Shown here: positions 28,021 through 62,882 of the stretch, piece after piece
Position numbering within the stretch: the stretch's first letter is position 1
Layout: each line of letters begins with the position of its first letter
DNA from: Fulvivirga sp.
Lineage (GTDB): Bacteria > Bacteroidota > Bacteroidia > Cytophagales > Cyclobacteriaceae
Reading direction: 5' to 3'
Length of the DNA stretch: 64,000 bases
Assembly: GCA_965284555.1 (NCBI GenBank)
Contig: OZ260091.1
Span: forward strand, 1,656,139 to 1,720,138
Made by a program: the position numbers and the translations under genes
The notes under the pieces: generated by a model
What the model saw: the letters and a program-made list of their open reading frames with translations, nothing else
Databases searched by the model: none
Told to the model about the DNA's origin: nothing

Positions 28021-28092
28021 AACGGCAAAGGTATTAAATTGAGTAATCTCTTTTGGCTATTGTCTCTATTTTGAGTTGAATCAATGGCAATT

Positions 28093-28106
28093 ATGATGAA
28101 CGTCAG
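28093..28106. promoter_or_regulatory. Crp/Fnr-type box upstream of ccoI (divergent from queE)
   Basis: atgat-gaac-gtcag. Confidence 0.65.
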
Positions 28107-31354: not shown

Positions 31355-31368
31355 CTGACAATAATCAA
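31355..31368. promoter_or_regulatory. Crp/Fnr-type box upstream of mlaE (divergent from DUF4136 gene)
   Basis: ctgac-aata-atcaa. Confidence 0.6.
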
Positions 31369-34184: not shown

Positions 34185-34225
34185 CATCTATCCACTCCCT
34201 TGCTTGACCAACTTCAAAATCTATA

Positions 34226-34239
34226 CTGACTTTCGTCAG
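34226..34239. promoter_or_regulatory. Crp/Fnr-type box upstream of dinB-hemN
   Basis: Perfect palindrome ctgac-tttc-gtcag; a second 1-mismatch site ttgac-caac-ttcaa at 34204-34217; TAnnTTTG -7 element tacttttg at 34262-34269. Confidence 0.7.
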
Positions 34240-36234: not shown

Positions 36235-36831
36235 GTGATGATCCCTGAAGAAATATTGAAAGAATATGGGGCGCAAATTCGCTTTTATAGCCGCGATGAG
36301 TTGTTGTTTCATCAGAGTACGAAGGCACATTATTACTTTCAGGTCAAATCTGGAGAGATAAAAATGGCACATTATAATAGCGATGGCCAAGAGTTTATAC
36401 AAGGTATATTTTCAGAAGGGCAAAGTTTTGGTGAGCCTGCTTTGTTTGGAGATTTTCCATATCCTTGTGGCGCAGTAGCCACACAGTCATCTGAGGTTTA
36501 TAAATTACCAGCCATTAGCTTTTTTAAGCTGCTAGAAGAGAACTTTGAAATTCACAAAAAATTTAACAAGGAACTTTCAAAGAGACTGCGCTATAAAGGT
36601 GTTTTACTCAATGAAATTTCATCCTACCCACCTTCACACAGGATCGAAACTGTACTCAAATATATTAGGAGTAGATATGGTGCTAAAGATGAAAATTTTG
36701 AAGTGCCATTTACCCGACAGCAGATTGCCGATATGACTGGGCTAAGAGTGGAAACTGTAATTAAAACCATCAAAAAAATGGCTCTTGACGAACAACTTCG
36801 TATCGAAAATCACAAGGTTATTCTAAATTAA
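36235..36831 (+). CDS. Crp/Fnr-family transcriptional regulator (DNR/NnrR-like, no FNR cysteines)
   Basis: cNMP-type beta-barrel (GQSFGEPALF..YPCGA) and HTH TRQQIADMTGLRVETVIK. Confidence 0.88.
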   Translation: MMIPEEILKEYGAQIRFYSRDELLFHQSTKAHYYFQVKSGEIKMAHYNSDGQEFIQGIFSEGQSFGEPALFGDFPYPCGAVATQSSEVYKLPAISFFKLLEENFEIHKKFNKELSKRLRYKGVLLNEISSYPPSHRIETVLKYIRSRYGAKDENFEVPFTRQQIADMTGLRVETVIKTIKKMALDEQLRIENHKVILN

Positions 36832-36939: not shown

Positions 36940-36953
36940 ATGATTTGAATCAT
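36940..36953. promoter_or_regulatory. Crp/Fnr-type box upstream of ric
   Basis: atgat-ttga-atcat. Confidence 0.7.
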
Positions 36954-37008: not shown

Positions 37009-37722
37009 ATGGAAAATCTGAAAGAACAAAAAGTAGGAGAGCTGGTAGCGGAAAACTATCAGTATGCCGATGTATTTAAAAAGTATGATATTGATTTTTG
37101 TTGTGGTGGTGGTGTCACGATTGGCGCTACTTGCTTGCTAAAGAATATAGATTTGAATCAACTTGAGAAGGAGCTAAGTCTTGTTAAACAGCAGCAACCT
37201 GTTGTAGATAATCCCGCCTCTTGGCCAATTAGTAAGCTTATTTCGCACATTGTCAATCATCATCATCATTACGTGCGCGAAAATATGCCCTATATTATAG
37301 CATATGCCGATAAGGTAGCCAAAGTACATGGACTAAACCACCCAGAAGTAATTGAAATTAGTAGGTTGGTAAATGAACTTCAAAGCGAACTTTTTATGCA
37401 CATGCATAAAGAAGAGGTGGTGCTTTTTCCATTTATCAATCAACTTCAGGCAAATAAAACAATTAGCGGTAATCCATTTTCTTCTATCAAAAGCCCTATA
37501 GAAGTAATGCTTTTAGAGCATGATTTAGCAGGAGATATATTAAAAGAGGTTCGCAACTTAAGTGCTAATTATACACCACCTAATGATGCCTGTACAACCT
37601 ATAAAGTACTCTTTGATAAACTCAAAAACTTCGAAGAGGATCTTCATCGTCATATACATTTAGAGAATAATATTCTGTTTTTAAAGGCCATTGAATTGGA
37701 AAGAAAAATGTATAATAATTGA
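37009..37722 (+). CDS. ric: Iron-sulfur cluster repair di-iron protein (Ric/YtfE/ScdA)
   Basis: FKKYDIDFCCGGG, HHHYVRE, HMHKEEVVLFP, EHD and HIHLENNILF (track start is GTG 36973). Confidence 0.93.
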   Translation: MENLKEQKVGELVAENYQYADVFKKYDIDFCCGGGVTIGATCLLKNIDLNQLEKELSLVKQQQPVVDNPASWPISKLISHIVNHHHHYVRENMPYIIAYADKVAKVHGLNHPEVIEISRLVNELQSELFMHMHKEEVVLFPFINQLQANKTISGNPFSSIKSPIEVMLLEHDLAGDILKEVRNLSANYTPPNDACTTYKVLFDKLKNFEEDLHRHIHLENNILFLKAIELERKMYNN

Positions 37723-37732
37723 CAAAAATCAA
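37719..37732. promoter_or_regulatory. Crp/Fnr-type box upstream of the cytochrome c-fasciclin-nosZ operon
   Basis: ttgac-aaaa-atcaa, 1 base from the FNR consensus TTGAT-N4-ATCAA; degenerate repeat ctgac-aaaa-attat at 37741-37754. Confidence 0.7.
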
Positions 37733-44738: not shown

Positions 44739-45893
44739 GTGAAGCATTGGCCTAAAATAACTCTGTTTTACCTTTTGTTTGTAGCGCTCTTTGGGTTGCT
44801 ATTGCGCTATGCTTTCATCAGTCCGGGTGGTTTTGTTTTTCAATATTTTAAGCATACACATTCGCACGTAGCTTTTTTAGGTTGGGTATTTAATGCCCTT
44901 TTTATCTTGGTATTGAGGTTTTATGTTGACCAACTAACCCGTCAAATCAAATGGCAGTTCTATTTATTTCAAATTTCCATTTTAGGAATGCTCCTGACCT
45001 TTCCATTTCAAGGATATGCTGCATTATCCATCACTTTTAGCACCTTGCACATATTTATTTCCATCTGGTTTTACTTTACAACCATTTCGGCAATTGGCAA
45101 TCAAGACCAAACAGTAAAATGGATTAATTTGGCTGCTTTTTATATGGTGGTATCCAATATTGGACCTTTGGCTTTAGCACCTATTCTCATATTAGGATTG
45201 AAAGATAGCGTAGTCTATCACCTTTCATTACAGCATTATCTGCACTTTCAGTATAACGGTTGGTTCTTTGTTGCAGCCATTGGGCTAATTATTAAAACTT
45301 ACAATATTAAGTTTAATAAAAGCAACCTACTTTTTTGGCTGTTGGCATGGTCTGTAATACCGCTGTTTTTTAGTACAGTAGCCATTATTATTGACCACTC
45401 CCTCTATAGAGGTATTGGTGCGGTAGGCGCTTTGGCTCAGCTAACAGGAATATTGCTATTTTTTCCATCATTGCGTAAAGCCATTATTCAACAATCAAAT
45501 ACTGAAAGGCTACTCATCTTTATAGTAATGCTGTGCATGATGGCAAAAGGAATTTTTCAATTGTCCATATCAATTCCTGCTATATCAGCTTCATTTATCA
45601 ATTTGCACAACCCCATTATAGGGTTTTTACACCTTGTCTTTTTGGGTATCATCACCAATTTGTTGGTGTTGATGTTTATCAAATCAGGTTTTATTAATGT
45701 GGGTAGGCTTACGTTTCTCGCTGCCATATTGTTTAATCTGGGTTTCTTTATAATGGTTGGTCTGTTGTTTATTCAACCGTTATATGTTCCTTCCAACTAT
45801 TTTCAATATCTGTTTTGGTCGTCAATTCCTATTTTAATCGGAGTAGTGCTGTTTAATATACAAGCTTTTGTAGCTGTAAAACCAACCTACTAA
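44739..45893 (+). CDS. Uncharacterised ~12-TM protein with three H-x4-G-[WI] motifs (heme-copper-oxidase-like pseudo-symmetry)
   Basis: GTG start abuts the nosY stop; HTHSHVAFLGW (H43), YLHFQYNGW (H169), FLHLVFLGI (H298). Confidence 0.8.
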   Translation: MKHWPKITLFYLLFVALFGLLLRYAFISPGGFVFQYFKHTHSHVAFLGWVFNALFILVLRFYVDQLTRQIKWQFYLFQISILGMLLTFPFQGYAALSITFSTLHIFISIWFYFTTISAIGNQDQTVKWINLAAFYMVVSNIGPLALAPILILGLKDSVVYHLSLQHYLHFQYNGWFFVAAIGLIIKTYNIKFNKSNLLFWLLAWSVIPLFFSTVAIIIDHSLYRGIGAVGALAQLTGILLFFPSLRKAIIQQSNTERLLIFIVMLCMMAKGIFQLSISIPAISASFINLHNPIIGFLHLVFLGIITNLLVLMFIKSGFINVGRLTFLAAILFNLGFFIMVGLLFIQPLYVPSNYFQYLFWSSIPILIGVVLFNIQAFVAVKPTY

Positions 45894-46006: not shown

Positions 46007-46020
46007 CTGATTATTATCAG
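46007..46020. promoter_or_regulatory. Crp/Fnr-type box upstream of ccoNO
   Basis: g-ctgat-tatt-atcag-c; degenerate second site ctaac-ggca-atcat at 46029-46042. Confidence 0.72.
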
Positions 46021-53475: not shown

Positions 53476-53489
53476 CTGATAAGGGTCAT
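53476..53489. promoter_or_regulatory. Crp/Fnr-type box upstream of yceI-barrel operon
   Basis: ctgat-aagg-gtcat. Confidence 0.65.
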
Positions 53490-56682: not shown

Positions 56683-56712
56683 GCAGATAGCATCTTGGCT
56701 ATCTGCTTTTTA
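56683..56712. terminator. Bidirectional terminator
   Basis: gcagatagc / gctatctgc followed by tttt, between convergent tonB and yceI2. Confidence 0.7.
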
Positions 56713-57291
56713 TTTCATACTAATTTTTAGATTTAACTCAACGAAAATCGTTTCGTTCACTTTAATCAAACCCATCATAGCGGTAGGAGGGTCAATTCCA
56801 AATTCTTTAATATCAAATTCTGATTTGAAATTTATATGAAATGATTTAGCATCGATTGGTAAAACTTCATACTTCAAAAAATACTTGTTGGTTTTACCGG
56901 CTATGGTAATCAGGGTTTCAGCTCTAGAATCATTAAAATCGATGGGATCGAAATTTTCAATATTTAAAAGTTGAAAATGCATAAAAGGAAATTTTTCACC
57001 TTTCAGCGTTTTTTTCATATCGCGAGTAATATAATTACTCTCACAATCAAATTTTTCTACGGTAAGGCTAAATTTTGTATTGTCAAAAGATATAAAACCA
57101 TCTTTTGCTTCATAACAAACACTCAACTGTTCTCCACAAAAGCCTTCTACTATTCTACAGTCAAATTCATTTACGTTGGATACTCCACTTAACCTAAAGC
57201 TACTTTCTGGCTCAATAATTACCATTGTGGTAGTTTGGGCAAAAGCAATACTTGGCACTAGTAATGAGAGAGAAACAAGGATTGATTTCAT
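56710..57291 (-). CDS. Second YceI-family protein (two conserved-looking Cys)
   Basis: Signal peptide; GVSNVNEFDC, FDCESNYITRDMKKTL, ITIAG and FGIDPPTAMMGLIKV. Confidence 0.8.
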   Translation of the reverse strand: MKSILVSLSLLVPSIAFAQTTTMVIIEPESSFRLSGVSNVNEFDCRIVEGFCGEQLSVCYEAKDGFISFDNTKFSLTVEKFDCESNYITRDMKKTLKGEKFPFMHFQLLNIENFDPIDFNDSRAETLITIAGKTNKYFLKYEVLPIDAKSFHINFKSEFDIKEFGIDPPTAMMGLIKVNETIFVELNLKISMK

Positions 57292-57343: not shown

Positions 57344-57357
57344 ATGACGGCAATCAG
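57344..57357. promoter_or_regulatory. Crp/Fnr-type box upstream of yceI2
   Basis: atgac-ggca-atcag, 53 nt before the minus-strand ATG. Confidence 0.65.
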
Positions 57358-57379: not shown

Positions 57380-58453
57380 TTAACGAGCAAAATGCCACTT
57401 TTGTATTTTTTTGAGCTTCTCCAAGTCTTTAATCACTATTTTGCCCCCATTTGACTCAATGATATTTTCATCTTTTAAATCTGATAACACTCTAATGACC
57501 GATTCGGTAGCTGTCCCTACCAAGTTCGACAGATCATCCCTAGATACTTTTATGCCATTAAGATCAGATTCTTTTTCTTTAAATTTTTCGTAAATAGTAA
57601 GCAAAGCCCCCGCTGTTCTTTGCCTTACAGAATTGTAAGCCAAATCAATTAGTGCTTGTTCTTTTTCTTCAATATTATTAGATAGTAGCTGAATAAATTT
57701 TTTGGCCACCTCCCTGTTAGAGTAAAGCAACTCGAAGAAGTCAATTTTAGGTATTTGAATTATATGGGTGTCTTCTATGGCTTCTGCAGAGTCTAAATGT
57801 TCTGTTTCTTTTAGTAAGGCCTCATATCCAAAATATTCTCCATTAGTGTATATACCCGTTATCAGCTCCTTTCCGTCTTCATTGGTTTTTATGGTTTTTA
57901 CCTTCCCCTTTTCAACCAAATAAAGGTGATTGGCATAATCTCCTTCTCTAAATATTTCATTTTTCTTTTTGAATAACCGAGAGCGGTGGCCTGAATTTAG
58001 ACTCTCCAGATTGTGGAGTTTTTGCACATCGGTGATAAAATTATTCAATCCGTCAGAATCATTTTGATAATCCTTTTTTAAGGCATCAACCTTTCTTAGT
58101 CGCGATTCAATAGCATCTAAAAGCTCTGTATCATCAAATGGCTTTGTTAAATAATCATCAGCACCAAGAGCCATACCCTTGCGCATATCCGAGCGTTCAG
58201 CCTTAGCCGTAAGAAAAATAAAGGGAATTGTAGCAGTTGATTCTTTTTTTGATAGGATATGTAATACTCCATAGCCGTCAAGCTCAGGCATCATAATATC
58301 ACAAATAATTAAATCAGGATTGGCTGACATGGCCATTTCAACTCCCTTTTTGCCATTCTCAGCCAAAATAGGCTCATAGTCGGCCAGGGTCAAAATTTCA
58401 CCTATATTCTCCCTAATTTCTGTGTTATCTTCAATAATTAGTACTTTTCTCAT
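57380..58453 (-). CDS. Hybrid response regulator: REC + cNMP-binding + Crp HTH
   Basis: IIEDN, LIICDIMMP (phospho-Asp), LTKPF; FREGDYANHLY..GEYFG; HTH SRDDLSNLVGTATESVIR. Confidence 0.9.
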   Translation of the reverse strand: MRKVLIIEDNTEIRENIGEILTLADYEPILAENGKKGVEMAMSANPDLIICDIMMPELDGYGVLHILSKKESTATIPFIFLTAKAERSDMRKGMALGADDYLTKPFDDTELLDAIESRLRKVDALKKDYQNDSDGLNNFITDVQKLHNLESLNSGHRSRLFKKKNEIFREGDYANHLYLVEKGKVKTIKTNEDGKELITGIYTNGEYFGYEALLKETEHLDSAEAIEDTHIIQIPKIDFFELLYSNREVAKKFIQLLSNNIEEKEQALIDLAYNSVRQRTAGALLTIYEKFKEKESDLNGIKVSRDDLSNLVGTATESVIRVLSDLKDENIIESNGGKIVIKDLEKLKKIQKWHFAR

Positions 58454-59703
58454 AATGGTAATGTCACAATAAAGGTGGTGCCTTCATTAACTTTACTGAT
58501 AAAATTAATAGACCCACTTAGCATTTCAATATATTTTTTCACAATATTTAAACCCAGACCAGTTCCTTGAATATTGGTAGCGTTTTTTGCTCTAAAAAAA
58601 CGTTCGAAGAGGTGCTTTTGCTCTTGCTCCGGTATTCCCATTCCTTTATCAATGATTTCGAAAACGAGTTTGTGATTATCAGCCTTTAAATTAAACGTGA
58701 TTGTTTTATTCTCATCAGAATATTTAATGGCATTGGACATTAAATTGATAATAATATTTTTGAGTAGCTTGTTATCAGATTTAATCATCAACGACTCTAT
58801 ATTTTTGGAGAATTGAATTTTTTGGCCACTTTTCAAGAGAGGTTCCATTTCACCCATCACAGTTTTGGCAAGCTCCACAACTTCAAATTCACACGTTGTC
58901 AATTCTATTTTACCTTCTTCAAGTTTTGCCAATGAAAGAAAATCATTCAAAATGTTATTTAAGTTGCTAATAGAAGATTTTATTTTTTCAACGTGGGAGA
59001 GTCTTTTTTCAGTTGTTCCCGGCTCATTGTATTTAGCAATCAGCGAAGCTGAAGATAAAATTGTACTTAATGGAGTTCTAAACTCATGACTAGCCATGGA
59101 GACAAATCGCGATTTTAACTCATTGAGCTCTCGTTCTTTTTCTAAGGCTATGCGGGCATCCTCTTCGGCCTTTTTTCTTACTTCAACTTGCTCATTAAGG
59201 TCAATATTGGCCTTTTCTAATTGAGCAATGGTTTTATCTAATTCTTTTGTTCTCTCGCTTACCCTGTTTTCCAATTCGGTAGCATATACAATTAACTGTT
59301 CTTCGCTTTTGCGTAAGGCTTCTTCAATCAACTTTCTTTCCGAAATGTTGATGATAAAAGCTACCGTATGATATTTGCCATTAAGAATTGCCTGGTTTAA
59401 ACTTACCTCTACCGGAAATTCTTCACCACTTTTTTTAACAGCCAATAAATCACGGCCTTTCCCCATCACTCTGGGGTGTGGGTTTTTATGATAATTAGCC
59501 CTATGATGAACATGAATTTTGCGTAAGGGAGTGGGCACCAGCATATCAATAGAAACTCCATTCATTTCTTCATCTTCATAACCAAAGAGCTTTTTAGCAG
59601 ATTTATTGGCCAGTACAATTAGCCCAATATCATCTACAACCAAAATTCCTTCTTCACAGGCTTCAAAAATGGCTTCGTAAGTAGGGGTGTTAGATGCTGT
59701 CAT
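58450..59703 (-). CDS. Cytoplasmic PAS histidine kinase with a FixL-like heme-PAS domain
   Basis: LVPTPLRKIH..Y..PRVMGKGRDLLAVKKSGEEFPVEVSL; ASHEFRTPL; NLMSNAIKYS, DKGMGI and GTGLGL; no TM segments. Confidence 0.88.
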   Translation of the reverse strand: MTASNTPTYEAIFEACEEGILVVDDIGLIVLANKSAKKLFGYEDEEMNGVSIDMLVPTPLRKIHVHHRANYHKNPHPRVMGKGRDLLAVKKSGEEFPVEVSLNQAILNGKYHTVAFIINISERKLIEEALRKSEEQLIVYATELENRVSERTKELDKTIAQLEKANIDLNEQVEVRKKAEEDARIALEKERELNELKSRFVSMASHEFRTPLSTILSSASLIAKYNEPGTTEKRLSHVEKIKSSISNLNNILNDFLSLAKLEEGKIELTTCEFEVVELAKTVMGEMEPLLKSGQKIQFSKNIESLMIKSDNKLLKNIIINLMSNAIKYSDENKTITFNLKADNHKLVFEIIDKGMGIPEQEQKHLFERFFRAKNATNIQGTGLGLNIVKKYIEMLSGSINFISKVNEGTTFIVTLPL

Positions 59704-59715
59704 GTTGCTAAAATA

Positions 59716-59729
59716 ATGATAAAAATCAG
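59716..59729. promoter_or_regulatory. Crp/Fnr-type box between divergent kinase and USP genes
   Basis: atgat-aaaa-atcag. Confidence 0.65.
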
Positions 59730-59799: not shown

Positions 59800-60228
59800 A
59801 TGTCTACAAAGAAGGTTTTATTTCCAACAGATTTCACCCGAGAATCGCTTAAATGCATGAAAGAGGCTATAGCCCACTGCGAACAGACTGGCGCAGAACT
59901 TATCGTTTTATATACTTACCGACTTATTAAACCTTTGGGCAATACAATGATGAGTACTACTTCTATTAAGCGAGAATTAGATGATCGTGCCAAACGGAAA
60001 TTTGAGGAGATAAGGGAGCAATATTTTAAGGATACACCTGTGCCATATCAATTATTGTCAGAAGTAGGATTTATGCTTGATAGAGTCGCCTATCATATTG
60101 AACACCAAAATATTGATCAAATTCTTATTTGTGATGGCATTTATCAACAATTAAAATCAAATATGGTGGTAGATAAGCAAGGCAAAAAAATGCTCAACAG
60201 GCGTCCGGTGGAGTTATTATCTGCCTAA
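59800..60228 (+). CDS. Universal stress protein (USP domain, degenerate)
   Basis: KVLFPTDFT..A...GAELIVLY N-terminus; 142 aa; lacks a clear G-x2-G-x9-G(S/T) motif. Confidence 0.75.
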   Translation: MSTKKVLFPTDFTRESLKCMKEAIAHCEQTGAELIVLYTYRLIKPLGNTMMSTTSIKRELDDRAKRKFEEIREQYFKDTPVPYQLLSEVGFMLDRVAYHIEHQNIDQILICDGIYQQLKSNMVVDKQGKKMLNRRPVELLSA

Positions 60229-60311: not shown

Positions 60312-62882
60312 ATGACTAGAATTTTGGTATCGCTTTTCTTCTTTATTTCTACTTTTTCGTTTGCTGATGTCGACAGCCTCGAAAATGTATTAAATAAAAC
60401 GATAAACCCTCGCGATAAAGTTATTATTTACAATTTATTGGCCAATGAATATTGGCATTCTAATACCACACGAGCGATGCTTTGCTCAGACTCGGCCTAT
60501 TCATTAGCGCTTAAACATGATATAAAAGGGCAAGATTTATTAGATGCGATTGTGAATAAAGGTATTACAGCCTACACCTTAGGGCAATATTTTGAAGCTT
60601 CTAATTTTTATAACCAAGCAATCAAATTAGCCATAGATTCTGATTTACGCCCTTACACCTACGTGGAACTTCAATTCAACCTTTTAAGAAAGCAAGGGGC
60701 GTATAAGCAAATTATTCAAAAAGTAGATTCTATTTTGAAATTTGACCAGAATGTAGCCGATTTCAAAGATAAGTTTTTGAACATAAAAGTGGTGGCTCAC
60801 ATTGATTTAGGTCAAGCTATAGAAGCAGGTGAGTTAATAAGGTCGTTGGAAAAGCAGGATTCACTCAATATTGCGCAGAGTTCTTTCAATTTAACAAAAG
60901 CTTCCTATTACAACATTGTTGGTAATTATGATCAAGCAATCAGTATTTTAGATAGCACACTAATAATCTACCAAAATCAAGGAGATTCGCTTGAAATGGC
61001 CAAAGTTTTCAAGCAAATGGCGCTTACTTATCTTCTTCAGGGTCAATACGATAAAGTACTTACCTTTAGTAATAATGCATTAGAAATTTACACCAAAGCA
61101 AACTATCCATACGGTATAGCACAAGCCTATTATGTACTGGGTTCATTATATGCAGAAATGGGAAAGAATGAGCTGGCTGTTGAATATTATTATAAAGCAC
61201 TTCCAATATATGAAAGTCAAACAAATAAAAAGGAGCTGGCTTTAACTTATAATGATCTTGCTTATTTATATGCAAGGCAAGACAAATCAAAGGCATTTGA
61301 ATATCTCAATAAGTCAATAAATATCTCTAGAAAAATAGGGGACCTAAACACAGAAGGTACCTCGTTTAATTTTATGGGGATATTTTTTGATCAACTTAAA
61401 AAATATGATAGTGCCATTTGGGCATATAATAAGTCAATTTCACTAAGGCAAAGTATCAACTATGAGCGTGGCGTTGCCGCTGTTGAGTTTAATAAGGGTT
61501 CCATCTATGAAAAATTGGGAGATTATGACAAGGCAATTGCCTTATATCTAAGAAGTTACGAAGTAGATACGAGAATTGGAAATGTGATTGGGATGGCTAT
61601 TAGTGAGTATTATTTAGGAGGCCTTATGACCAAAATGAAAAAATTTGCAGAGGCTAAAATCTATTTTGATAAGGCATTAAAAAAATTACGAGATAGAAAG
61701 GCTAATGTCTATCTCATAGAATGCCTGCAAAAAGTAGCCACGTATTATGAGGCCATCAATGATGCACCACAAGCACTCAAATATTATAAGGAATATATTG
61801 CACTAAAAGAAACGGTTTTTAACCTAGAAACGGAAATCAGATTGGCGGAGTTAGAAGAACGTGCAGAATTGGACAAGAAAAATAAGGAAATTGAAATTTT
61901 AAATTTAGCCAATAAGAACCGTCAACAGGATATTCTTATCCAAGAGAAAACAATTGCTAATCAGCGCTTTTTGATAGGATTTATAAGTTTTGGCATTGTT
62001 AGTGTTTCGCTTTTGCTCCTAATAACTTTCAGGTTATTAAAAATAAGAAGTAAAACCAATAAGCAACTCGAAAAGCTCAATAGGGAAATTACTGAGCAAG
62101 CTGAGGAGATCACTGCTCAAGCAGAAGAGCTCAAAGAAGCTAATGAAGAAATTTCATTACTCAATGAAGGATTGGAAGCCACTGTTAGTCGCAGAACAAA
62201 CGAGCTCAAATTGGCAAAGAAGGAATTGGATACCTTCTTTTACCATGCCTCACACGATTTTAGAAGACCTCTTACTACATTTTTAGGATTAGCAGAGATT
62301 GCACAATCTATTTTAGATGATCCTAAGGCACTTGAACTATTTGATAAGGTACGCGAAACAGCCGGAAGCCTAGATAGAATGGTATCAAAATTAAAGGCCA
62401 TCAGTATTATTGGTTTTGAGAAAAACAAATTTTCTGATATTGATATGCTGGCCTTAATCAATGCTATATTGGCCAAACAAAAAACACTGATTAATCAAAG
62501 TAAAATAGAAGTCCGGCTTAATATTCAAGCCACGCATTATTACTCATCATATGACTTGGTGGAGATCATTTTAGAAAATCTAATCGAAAATGCCGTATTA
62601 TATAGCGATTTACACAAACAATCATGGATTTCAATTGCAAATAGTCAATATGCAAATAAGTTATTGATTACAGTCAGTGATAACGGACAGGGTATTGATG
62701 ATAGCCTGACACCGCGCATATTTGATATGTACTACAGGGCGAATGAAGCTTCTCAAGGAAATGGACTTGGTTTGTACATAGCTAAAATGGCCACTGAAAA
62801 ACTAAAAGGGGAAATCACCTTCGAAACTAAGCTCGGGGAGGGGACAATTTTTACAATTAAGTTGCCCAATACCGAAAAGTAA
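60312..62882 (+). CDS. TPR-containing membrane sensor histidine kinase
   Basis: Signal peptide, periplasmic TPRs, TM (FLIGFISFGIVSVSLLLLI), ASHDFRRPL, NLIENA, DNGQGI and GNGLGL. Confidence 0.9.
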   Translation: MTRILVSLFFFISTFSFADVDSLENVLNKTINPRDKVIIYNLLANEYWHSNTTRAMLCSDSAYSLALKHDIKGQDLLDAIVNKGITAYTLGQYFEASNFYNQAIKLAIDSDLRPYTYVELQFNLLRKQGAYKQIIQKVDSILKFDQNVADFKDKFLNIKVVAHIDLGQAIEAGELIRSLEKQDSLNIAQSSFNLTKASYYNIVGNYDQAISILDSTLIIYQNQGDSLEMAKVFKQMALTYLLQGQYDKVLTFSNNALEIYTKANYPYGIAQAYYVLGSLYAEMGKNELAVEYYYKALPIYESQTNKKELALTYNDLAYLYARQDKSKAFEYLNKSINISRKIGDLNTEGTSFNFMGIFFDQLKKYDSAIWAYNKSISLRQSINYERGVAAVEFNKGSIYEKLGDYDKAIALYLRSYEVDTRIGNVIGMAISEYYLGGLMTKMKKFAEAKIYFDKALKKLRDRKANVYLIECLQKVATYYEAINDAPQALKYYKEYIALKETVFNLETEIRLAELEERAELDKKNKEIEILNLANKNRQQDILIQEKTIANQRFLIGFISFGIVSVSLLLLITFRLLKIRSKTNKQLEKLNREITEQAEEITAQAEELKEANEEISLLNEGLEATVSRRTNELKLAKKELDTFFYHASHDFRRPLTTFLGLAEIAQSILDDPKALELFDKVRETAGSLDRMVSKLKAISIIGFEKNKFSDIDMLALINAILAKQKTLINQSKIEVRLNIQATHYYSSYDLVEIILENLIENAVLYSDLHKQSWISIANSQYANKLLITVSDNGQGIDDSLTPRIFDMYYRANEASQGNGLGLYIAKMATEKLKGEITFETKLGEGTIFTIKLPNTEK

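Follow-up and report, generated by a model that had tools for sequence, protein, structure and literature searches.

The closest described systems to the locus analyzed here are the FixL-FixJ-FixK cascade of rhizobia and Caulobacter and the hFixL-FxkR-FixK/FnrN network of Rhizobium leguminosarum. The cascade starts from a heme-PAS histidine kinase, runs through FixJ, a regulator with a receiver domain (REC) and a LuxR/NarL-type helix-turn-helix (HTH), and ends in a Crp/Fnr-family activator, whose TGA-N6-TCA-type operator precedes the cbb3 oxidase, hemN and stress genes. In the network, a heme-kinase pathway and an FNR with a cysteine cluster converge on one operator (PMC7888657). Here we describe a locus in 64,000 nucleotides of Fulvivirga sp. 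(Bacteroidota, Cyclobacteriaceae; GenBank assembly GCA_965284555.1, contig OZ260091.1, positions 1,656,139 to 1,720,138), a stretch to which we refer as the window, where the gene of a putative heme-PAS kinase immediately precedes that of a hybrid regulator, in which a receiver is fused to a Crp/Fnr module.

This locus shares the two ends of the cascade: the PAS domain of the kinase has the same spacing of proximal His and distal Arg as FixL, and an activator of the Crp/Fnr family stands at the end, with boxes of the same operator type ahead of cbb3, hemN and stress genes. The partner of the kinase, however, is not a FixJ, and the kinase has a single PAS domain. As receiver and Crp module are directly joined in one protein, the pair would, in contrast to FixL-FixJ-FixK, need no obligatory transcriptional relay. 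It also differs from the R. leguminosarum network, where three proteins act in series: here, one protein makes up the whole relay, and the genome lacks the FNR arm. Judging from sequence features and from analogy to these systems, we favor, with moderate confidence, the view that the two proteins form a cognate two-component system that stands in for FNR at low oxygen and, under this condition, most likely activates stress genes and the genes of the high-affinity oxidase and N2O reductase. Mycobacterial DevS/DosT-DosR is likewise built on a heme-based kinase and controls a regulon rich in universal stress proteins (USP), but its heme is held by a GAF rather than a PAS domain, its regulator is of the NarL type and its operator is unrelated.

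Soils, sediments, wastewater and the sea harbor aerobic Bacteroidota in abundance, and much of the N2O-sink capacity of clade II nosZ resides in them, yet we found no study on how they sense falling oxygen. Full-text literature searches, which for the most part did not extend to subscription journals, returned no published study of a heme-PAS kinase/REC-Crp pair and no characterization of one in Bacteroidota, in agreement with an earlier reading of the window from its sequence alone (the original prediction). By sequence, the design is nevertheless widespread in this phylum.

The sensor kinase and its heme pocket

The kinase comprises a PAS domain (Pfam, residues 9-122), a HisKA domain (197-264, E-value 3.7e-15) and a HATPase_c domain (310-417, 3.7e-27), and thus, like FixL, has a HisKA/HATPase_c transmitter with a phospho-acceptor His. 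No transmembrane segment was found in it, the highest 19-residue Kyte-Doolittle mean being 1.42, and neither the kinase nor the hybrid regulator contains a membrane-spanning hydrophobic stretch.

When the PAS segment was compared to the sequences of the PDB, it yielded 16 distinct matches, and all 14 of those with E-values below 1e-8 were heme-binding PAS domains, among them FG214 (10jx, 3.5e-15), FixL of B. japonicum (BjFixL) and of S. meliloti, and E. coli DosP, also called EcDOS (4e-13). Residues 11-130 align with the heme domain of BjFixL (1dp6) without a gap over 120 residues (E-value 2.4e-13). In this alignment, which uses the established FixL residue numbers, H64 corresponds to H200, Y71 to Y207 and R84 to R220, and H64 and R84 lie 20 residues apart. 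An AlphaFold (AF2) model of the PAS domain, built from 54 sequences (pLDDT 87), agrees with this: in a Foldseek search against the PDB, the top 30 matches were all heme-PAS domains, the best of them a FixL (8js5, E-value 3e-12, TM 0.80). H64 thereby occupies the place of the proximal, heme-ligating His on the F-alpha helix of the PAS fold, and R84 that of the distal Arg on the G-beta strand.

In 120 full-length kinase homologs (45-68% identity), the best-conserved PAS positions are H64 and G81 (both 120/120), R84 and M80 (both 119/120) and R78 (118/120), and these residues gather on the F-helix and the FG loop. The assignment to the heme-PAS kinases of the FixL/DosP type is thus supported by sequence, by conservation and by the predicted fold, and heme binding by the PAS domain appears well supported by the same comparisons. 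That the domain binds no heme, being a generic ligand-binding or dimerization PAS whose likeness to FixL reflects ancestry only, we consider very improbable. The FixL residues in contact with the heme propionates, R206 and H214, are indeed not conserved as such, but the conserved basic residues R78 and R68 could serve the propionates instead; the proximal His is invariant, conservation peaks at the two elements named above, and all close PDB relatives, whether found by sequence or by fold, bind heme.

The pocket nevertheless departs from that of FixL, and these departures weigh against reading the kinase as an oxygen sensor of the FixL kind. The positions of FixL R206, H214 and I216 are taken by N70, R78 and M80, respectively, and the position of the distal I215 is variable among the homologs, so that the ligand chemistry may differ. 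EcDOS/DosP and FG214 are the closest or near-closest relatives of the PAS domain; the proximal His is common to all of them, and the kinase shares an R-x-M-G motif with FG214 and the distal Arg with DosP. Neither of them is a histidine kinase: the output of DosP is a c-di-GMP phosphodiesterase, that of FG214 a one-component HTH protein. In the preprint on FG214 (PDB 10jx), H156 is the proximal and M172 an alternative distal ligand; these residues correspond to H64 and M80 of the kinase, whereas the distal His175 of FG214 is replaced by Gly83. M80 is invariant but for one homolog and matches this possible distal ligand, and heme coordination may resemble that of DosP and FG214 rather than that of FixL; the iron could either be five-coordinate like that of FixL or undergo Met switching.

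These features could also be read to mean that the kinase senses redox state, NO or CO instead of O2, by hexacoordinate His64/Met80 switching as in EcDOS and FG214, and that it tunes denitrification and NO-stress genes such as nos and ric, both of which are preceded by boxes. In addition to the variable I215 position, the 99% conservation of a residue that matches the redox-switch ligand of FG214 and the occurrence of Met, Ile or Leu at the position of R84 in other clades of the family speak for this. Within the clade of the kinase, however, R84 is also 99% conserved, and it is the equivalent of FixL R220 and DosP R97, the residue that stabilizes bound O2. Further, the strongest synteny of the pair is with cbb3 oxidase genes, and its distribution is largely complementary to that of the O2 sensor FNR (see below). 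We therefore consider it fairly unlikely that the kinase responds to redox state, NO or CO, and O2 the more plausible ligand.

Beyond the 120 homologs, we aligned 61 kinase sequences taken from 68 related loci as a wider family set. A strict heme-pocket pattern had missed half of these distant kinases, but the full alignment showed that the His is kept (58/61) and that the Arg varies. The position of R84 is Met, Ile or Leu in kinases of the Runella and Dyadobacter types and, when Lacihabitans-type members are included, Met, Ile, Leu, Phe or Tyr (L016, L024, L037, L040, L046, L056, L061, L066, L077 and others), which hints at differing ligand selectivities inside one kinase family. Three wider-family kinases have a textbook FixL pocket (L023, L028, L073). 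At residue 119 (59347-59349), part of the D-I-T/S motif between PAS domain and linker, the kinase has an Asn; among the 120 homologs, 110 have Asp and four have Asn here.

The hybrid regulator

The partner of the kinase consists of a Response_reg domain (Pfam, residues 4-116, E-value 2.4e-27), a cNMP_binding domain (160-243) and an HTH_Crp_2 domain (278-350). The residues of a phosphorylatable receiver, E8, D9, D52, T82 and K104, are invariant in 43 homologs. The remainder qualifies as a Crp/Fnr protein, with a beta-roll, a dimerization helix and an HTH with the E..R pair, and it yields full-length alignments to CRP and FNR structures (E-value about 3e-17 for FNR of Aliivibrio fischeri). In an AF2 model (pLDDT 84), a receiver of standard form, a linker helix and a Crp module can be distinguished. 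No PDB chain spans both halves, and the REC-Crp fusion is thus without a solved structure.

The module is neither a CRP nor an FNR in the strict sense. CRP proper has an Arg-Ser/Thr pair for binding the phosphate of cAMP; in the hybrid, a His-Leu aligns with the Arg-Ser of the cAMP-binding CRP 4ev0, and the family shows little conservation at this place. We therefore judged a second, cyclic-nucleotide input to the regulator unlikely. FNR proper has an N-terminal Cys cluster and a fourth Cys about 100 residues further on, which together hold a [4Fe-4S] cluster; the Crp module of the hybrid has no cysteine at all, and the place of the N-terminal Cys motif is taken by a 120-residue receiver, which suggests that sensing has been outsourced to the kinase. 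By its domains, the regulator most resembles a protein of the FNR subfamily in which a receiver has taken the place of the sensor.

For the most part, these results agree with the original prediction, which had recognized both open reading frames with their domains, a kinase without transmembrane segments that overlaps the start of its regulator gene, the gap-free match to the FixL heme pocket with His and Arg codons 20 residues apart, and the joining of a phosphorylatable receiver to a Crp/Fnr module. Its image of FixJ and FixK merged into one protein does not fit the domains, however, as the receiver is not of the FixJ/NarL type.

Pairing and distribution

The stop codon of the kinase gene (TGA, 58450-58452) and the start codon of the regulator gene (ATG, 58451-58453) overlap as ATGA. 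We collected 80 related Bacteroidota loci from species genomes, with 6-kb flanks, and in 75 of them the kinase gene lies directly upstream of the regulator gene. Overlap and adjacency together support a cognate pair. A FixJ partner would be composed of a receiver and a LuxR/GerE-type HTH, whereas the translationally coupled partner found here combines REC, cNMP_binding and HTH_Crp_2. Within the flanks, about 37 of the 80 loci contain genes for cbb3 maturation (ccoG, fixH or DsbD_2), and 27 contain a USP gene.

Full-length REC-cNMP-HTH_Crp homologs (57-80% identity) and homologs of the kinase are abundant in Cytophagales and other Bacteroidota, where they carry generic names only. Among 301 evenly sampled Bacteroidota genomes, 41 contain the hybrid, distributed over 38 of 144 genera and concentrated in a few families; in two large families it was found in none of the 63 and 49 sampled genomes, respectively.

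Operator boxes in the window and the genome

The strict FNR consensus TTGAT-N4-ATCAA, searched with one mismatch, is not clearly enriched by itself in the window (13 matches, 6.7 expected), and we replaced it by a core derived from the intergenic matches, TGAY-N4-RTCA. This core occurs 14 times, compared to 4.15 ± 2.23 times in shuffled sequences, and none of 100 shuffles reached 14. Nine of the 14 boxes fall into the 6.3 kb of intergenic DNA, all of them between 28.1 and 59.7 kb, at a density about 16-fold that in coding sequence. They stand 19-86 nt ahead of ccoI, mlaE, dinB-hemN, ric, the nos operon, ccoNO, both yceI genes and usp (Table 1).

Boxes, taken here in the form TGA-N6-TCA, also come in pairs. 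Nine pairs in the genome are exactly 22 bp apart, compared to zero or one at spacings of 20, 21 and 23 bp, which suggests two dimers bound on the same helix face. Two of the pairs are in the window; pairs outside it are found at genome positions 1340557, 1355824, 1359189, 1373900 and 2498816. Further boxes of the genome cluster at 1.33-1.38 Mb (1333000-1378000) and 2.50-2.51 Mb (2496500-2516000), ahead of genes for tandem USP, globin, cation P-type ATPase, LOG-like and SDR proteins, a 231-residue Crp protein (Crp231), a CDP-alcohol phosphatidyltransferase, an RND pump and several proteins of unknown function. Taken together, the two clusters resemble a wider regulon for hypoxia and stress. A scan for the Bacteroidota promoter element TAnnTTTG was informative at the dinB-hemN promoter only, where a strict match lies 29.5 nt from the center of the proximal box, a class II-like position.

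The box between the kinase and usp genes was located correctly by the original prediction, but the autoregulation that it took the box to suggest needs correction. The box is 13 nt from the kinase start and is directly followed, on the minus strand, by the -7-like element TATTTTAG (59715-59708). In the 68 usable related loci, 40 have a box within 300 nt upstream of the kinase gene, about 4 being expected by chance, mostly 11-49 nt from the start and with a spacer that is conserved as well. Its presence follows that of a divergent USP gene, with 24 of 25 loci that have such a gene but only 7 of 43 loci that lack one, and in these loci it sits 66-112 nt ahead of USP. In view of the position, the abutting element and the association with USP, we rejected autoregulatory activation of the kinase. 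Since the box tracks USP and abuts the -7-like element of the kinase, it is presumably an activator site for USP and at most a repressing site for autoregulation, which would probably feed back negatively on the kinase operon. This mirrors the arrangement in R. leguminosarum, where a shared operator activates one gene and represses its divergent neighbor (PMC7888657).

The only perfect TTGAT-N4-ATCAA of the window (45669-45682) lies inside an open reading frame downstream of nosY (44739-45893) that matches no Pfam family. It is 425 nt ahead of ccoNO and could serve the ccoN promoter as a distal site.

Hybrid, FNR and Crp231 as readers of the boxes

To compare ccoNO promoters, we took 400 nt upstream of the gene from 20 genomes with the hybrid and from 20 genomes of the same class without it. 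The box was present in 17 of 20 in either group. It is therefore not dependent on the hybrid and does not by itself implicate it. The original prediction had described a 32-kb regulon of the hybrid; the box regulon of the window is real, but its box is not specific to this regulator.

In the genomes without the hybrid, a stand-alone Crp-family protein is encoded 3-6 kb from ccoNO (L127-L143, L145-L157) that combines an N-terminal CxxC with another Cys about 102 residues on. This spacing matches that of C20 and C122 in E. coli FNR, and we refer to these proteins as Cys-FNR. Like FNR of E. coli and A. fischeri, they share the Crp module with the hybrid (about 36% identity to a Cys-FNR of the same family), and they also share the ccoNO box; their recognition helix, GTATE[ST]xIRLLSEF, is nearly that of the hybrid. 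A Cys-less form with this helix occurs in two genomes of a single family (G027, G211).

None of the five Crp-family genes in the genome analyzed here has the Cys motif of Cys-FNR. The hybrid therefore looks like an FNR with its sensor swapped, and the pair would fill the role of FNR. Among cco-positive genomes of the class, 14 of the 17 checked that lack the hybrid had a verified Cys-FNR, compared to 9 of 29 that have the hybrid, three of the latter being unresolved, counts that are uncorrected for kinship; seven of the nine belong to one family. In the family of this genome, four of four genomes without the hybrid have Cys-FNR and none of three with it. The hybrid is the only FNR-subfamily member in seven genomes, and all six of these that were tested keep the ccoNO box. 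The distributions of the hybrid and Cys-FNR are thus largely complementary, and the phyletic counts support the hybrid as a likely reader of the box and functional stand-in for FNR.

Three observations count against this. The counts just given carry no correction for relatedness; the box is equally frequent where there is no hybrid; and the hybrid and Cys-FNR coexist in one family, so that the hybrid is not simply a replacement. This coexistence is mirrored in R. leguminosarum, where heme-kinase pathway and Cys-cluster FNR meet at a common operator (PMC7888657).

A fourth concerns Crp231, which has a recognition helix almost identical to that of the hybrid (KETAIR vs TESVIR), lies within the second box cluster and has two boxes 282-300 nt upstream of its own gene; it could bind the same sites and is a candidate for a FixK-like second-tier regulator. 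The boxes might then be read mainly by Crp231, alone or together with a further Crp paralog (Crp2), and the hybrid would stand above it in a cascade, acting on the crp231 promoter, or have few targets such as usp; the logic of FixL-FixJ-FixK would be kept and not collapsed. The independence of the ccoNO box from the hybrid across genomes would fit this, as would the use of one operator by rhizobial FixK and FnrN (PMC7888657). Yet Crp231 has neither a Cys cluster nor another recognizable sensor motif, proteins of its type are patchier than the box, and the helix of Cys-FNR is matched better by that of the hybrid. Moreover, the seven genomes just mentioned have no stand-alone protein similar to Crp231 or FNR with an E-value better than 1e-15. 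We thus consider Crp231 unlikely to be the main reader, and prefer the hybrid in this role. With respect to the claim that FixL, FixJ and FixK are collapsed into two proteins, the heme kinase and the REC-Crp regulator are borne out, but with Crp231 present a second tier is possible and the collapse, albeit plausible, is unproven.

Proposed mechanism and implications

From the above we infer heme binding, O2 as ligand, the direction of kinase control and recognition of the boxes by the hybrid, which combine into the following mechanism. The kinase would sense oxygen, or the redox or ligand state of its heme, through a heme b that is held by His64 and faces Arg84 and the invariant Met80 on its distal side. 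In analogy with FixL, the ligand-free kinase, at low oxygen, would autophosphorylate on His206, and the phosphate would pass to Asp52 of the regulator. Phosphorylation of the receiver would then drive the active dimer, a part that the Fe-S cluster plays in FNR. This dimer would bind TGAY-N4-RTCA boxes, often as pairs 22 bp apart, and activate ccoI, hemN, ric, the nos operon, ccoNO-P-G-H, the yceI genes and usp.

More tentatively, and with somewhat less than even chances in our estimate, several aerobic lineages of Bacteroidota may have replaced the Fe-S FNR by a receiver-FNR driven by a heme kinase at the same operator, in a natural swap of sensors. If so, the switch point of cbb3, nosZ and stress genes would have moved from near-anoxia, sensed by Fe-S, to microoxia, sensed by heme, and where hybrid and Cys-FNR coexist, they would give a two-threshold response on one operator. 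The complementary distribution, if it holds, would represent an exchange of sensor modules on a conserved transcription factor and operator, and would predict lineage-specific O2 thresholds for N2O reduction. The module thus offers a two-protein candidate oxygen sensor with a defined operator and with the promoters of cbb3 oxidase, hemN, nos and usp as targets, and the REC-Crp fusion would show how a receiver controls a dimer of the Crp type.

Neighboring genes

The neighborhood of the pair in the window is a low-oxygen respiration island. It includes genes for a FixI/CcoI-type P-type ATPase, mlaEFD, dinB, a hemN-type radical-SAM gene, a 198-residue Crp protein and ric/scdA, followed by a cytochrome c-fasciclin-nosZ-nosLDFY cluster, ccoNO, ccoP, ccoG, fixH, a DsbD_2 gene and two yceI genes. 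The coordinates of the features are collected in Table 1.

Table 1. Features of the kinase/regulator locus, operator boxes and related genes. Positions are those of the window unless marked as genome positions.
Feature	Position	Strand	Basis or remark
Soluble sensor histidine kinase, 417 aa	58450..59703	-	Open reading frame, Pfam domains, homologs; heme-type PAS, coiled-coil linker, HisKA (H206), HATPase_c
PAS domain (residues 9-122), predicted FixL/DosP/FG214-type heme pocket	59338..59679	-	H64 59512-59514, R68, Y71, R78, M80, R84 59452-59454
Codon of phospho-acceptor His206 (SHEFRTPL box)	59086..59088	-	Invariant in 120 homologs
Hybrid response regulator, 357 aa: REC, linker helix, cNMP-type beta-roll, Crp-type HTH	57380..58453	-	Pfam, homologs, AF2 model
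Receiver domain (residues 4-116)	58106..58444	-	Phospho-acceptor D52 codon 58298-58300 (IICDIMMPELDG); E8, D9, T82, K104 present
cNMP-binding-like beta-roll (residues 160-243)	57725..57976	-	Without conserved cAMP phosphate-binding Arg-Ser
Crp-type HTH (residues 278-350), recognition helix GTATESVIRVLSDL	57404..57622	-	Pfam; E317 and R321 invariant
Box TGATAAAAATCA in 96-nt kinase/USP intergenic region	59717..59728	.	13 nt from kinase ATG, 71 nt from USP ATG
USP gene, divergent from kinase; likely box target	59800..60228	+	Pfam Usp
Dual boxes 22 bp apart, between radical-SAM gene (-) and ccoI/fixI (+)	28072..28105	.	
Box between DUF4136 gene and mlaE	31356..31367	.	
Dual boxes 22 bp apart ahead of dinB-hemN	34205..34238	.	
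Box ahead of ric/scdA	36941..36952	.	
Box ahead of cytochrome c-fasciclin-nosZ operon	37720..37731	.	
Box ahead of ccoNO	46008..46019	.	Conserved upstream of ccoNO in other genomes
Box ahead of first yceI gene	53477..53488	.	
Box ahead of YceI-like gene 56710-57291 (-), just downstream of regulator gene	57345..57356	.	
Stand-alone Crp/Fnr paralog, 198 aa, helix RVETVIK, between hemN and ric	36235..36831	+	Pfam, helix comparison
Crp231, stand-alone Crp/Fnr, 231 aa, helix KETAIR	genome 1356118-1356813 (L082:1619-2314)		No Cys cluster

A TPR-repeat membrane histidine kinase encoded beyond USP (60312-62882) was considered as a partner, but is found near the pair in only one of the 80 loci and is probably unrelated. 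One related locus (L058), on a 3.1-kb contig with a hybrid of 52% identity, comes from a metagenome-assembled genome labelled Alphaproteobacteria and is probably a binning artefact rather than a case of transfer. The 198-residue Crp paralog, by its different recognition helix, is possibly a second regulator with another specificity, perhaps responsive to NO or N-oxides and directed at nos and ric.

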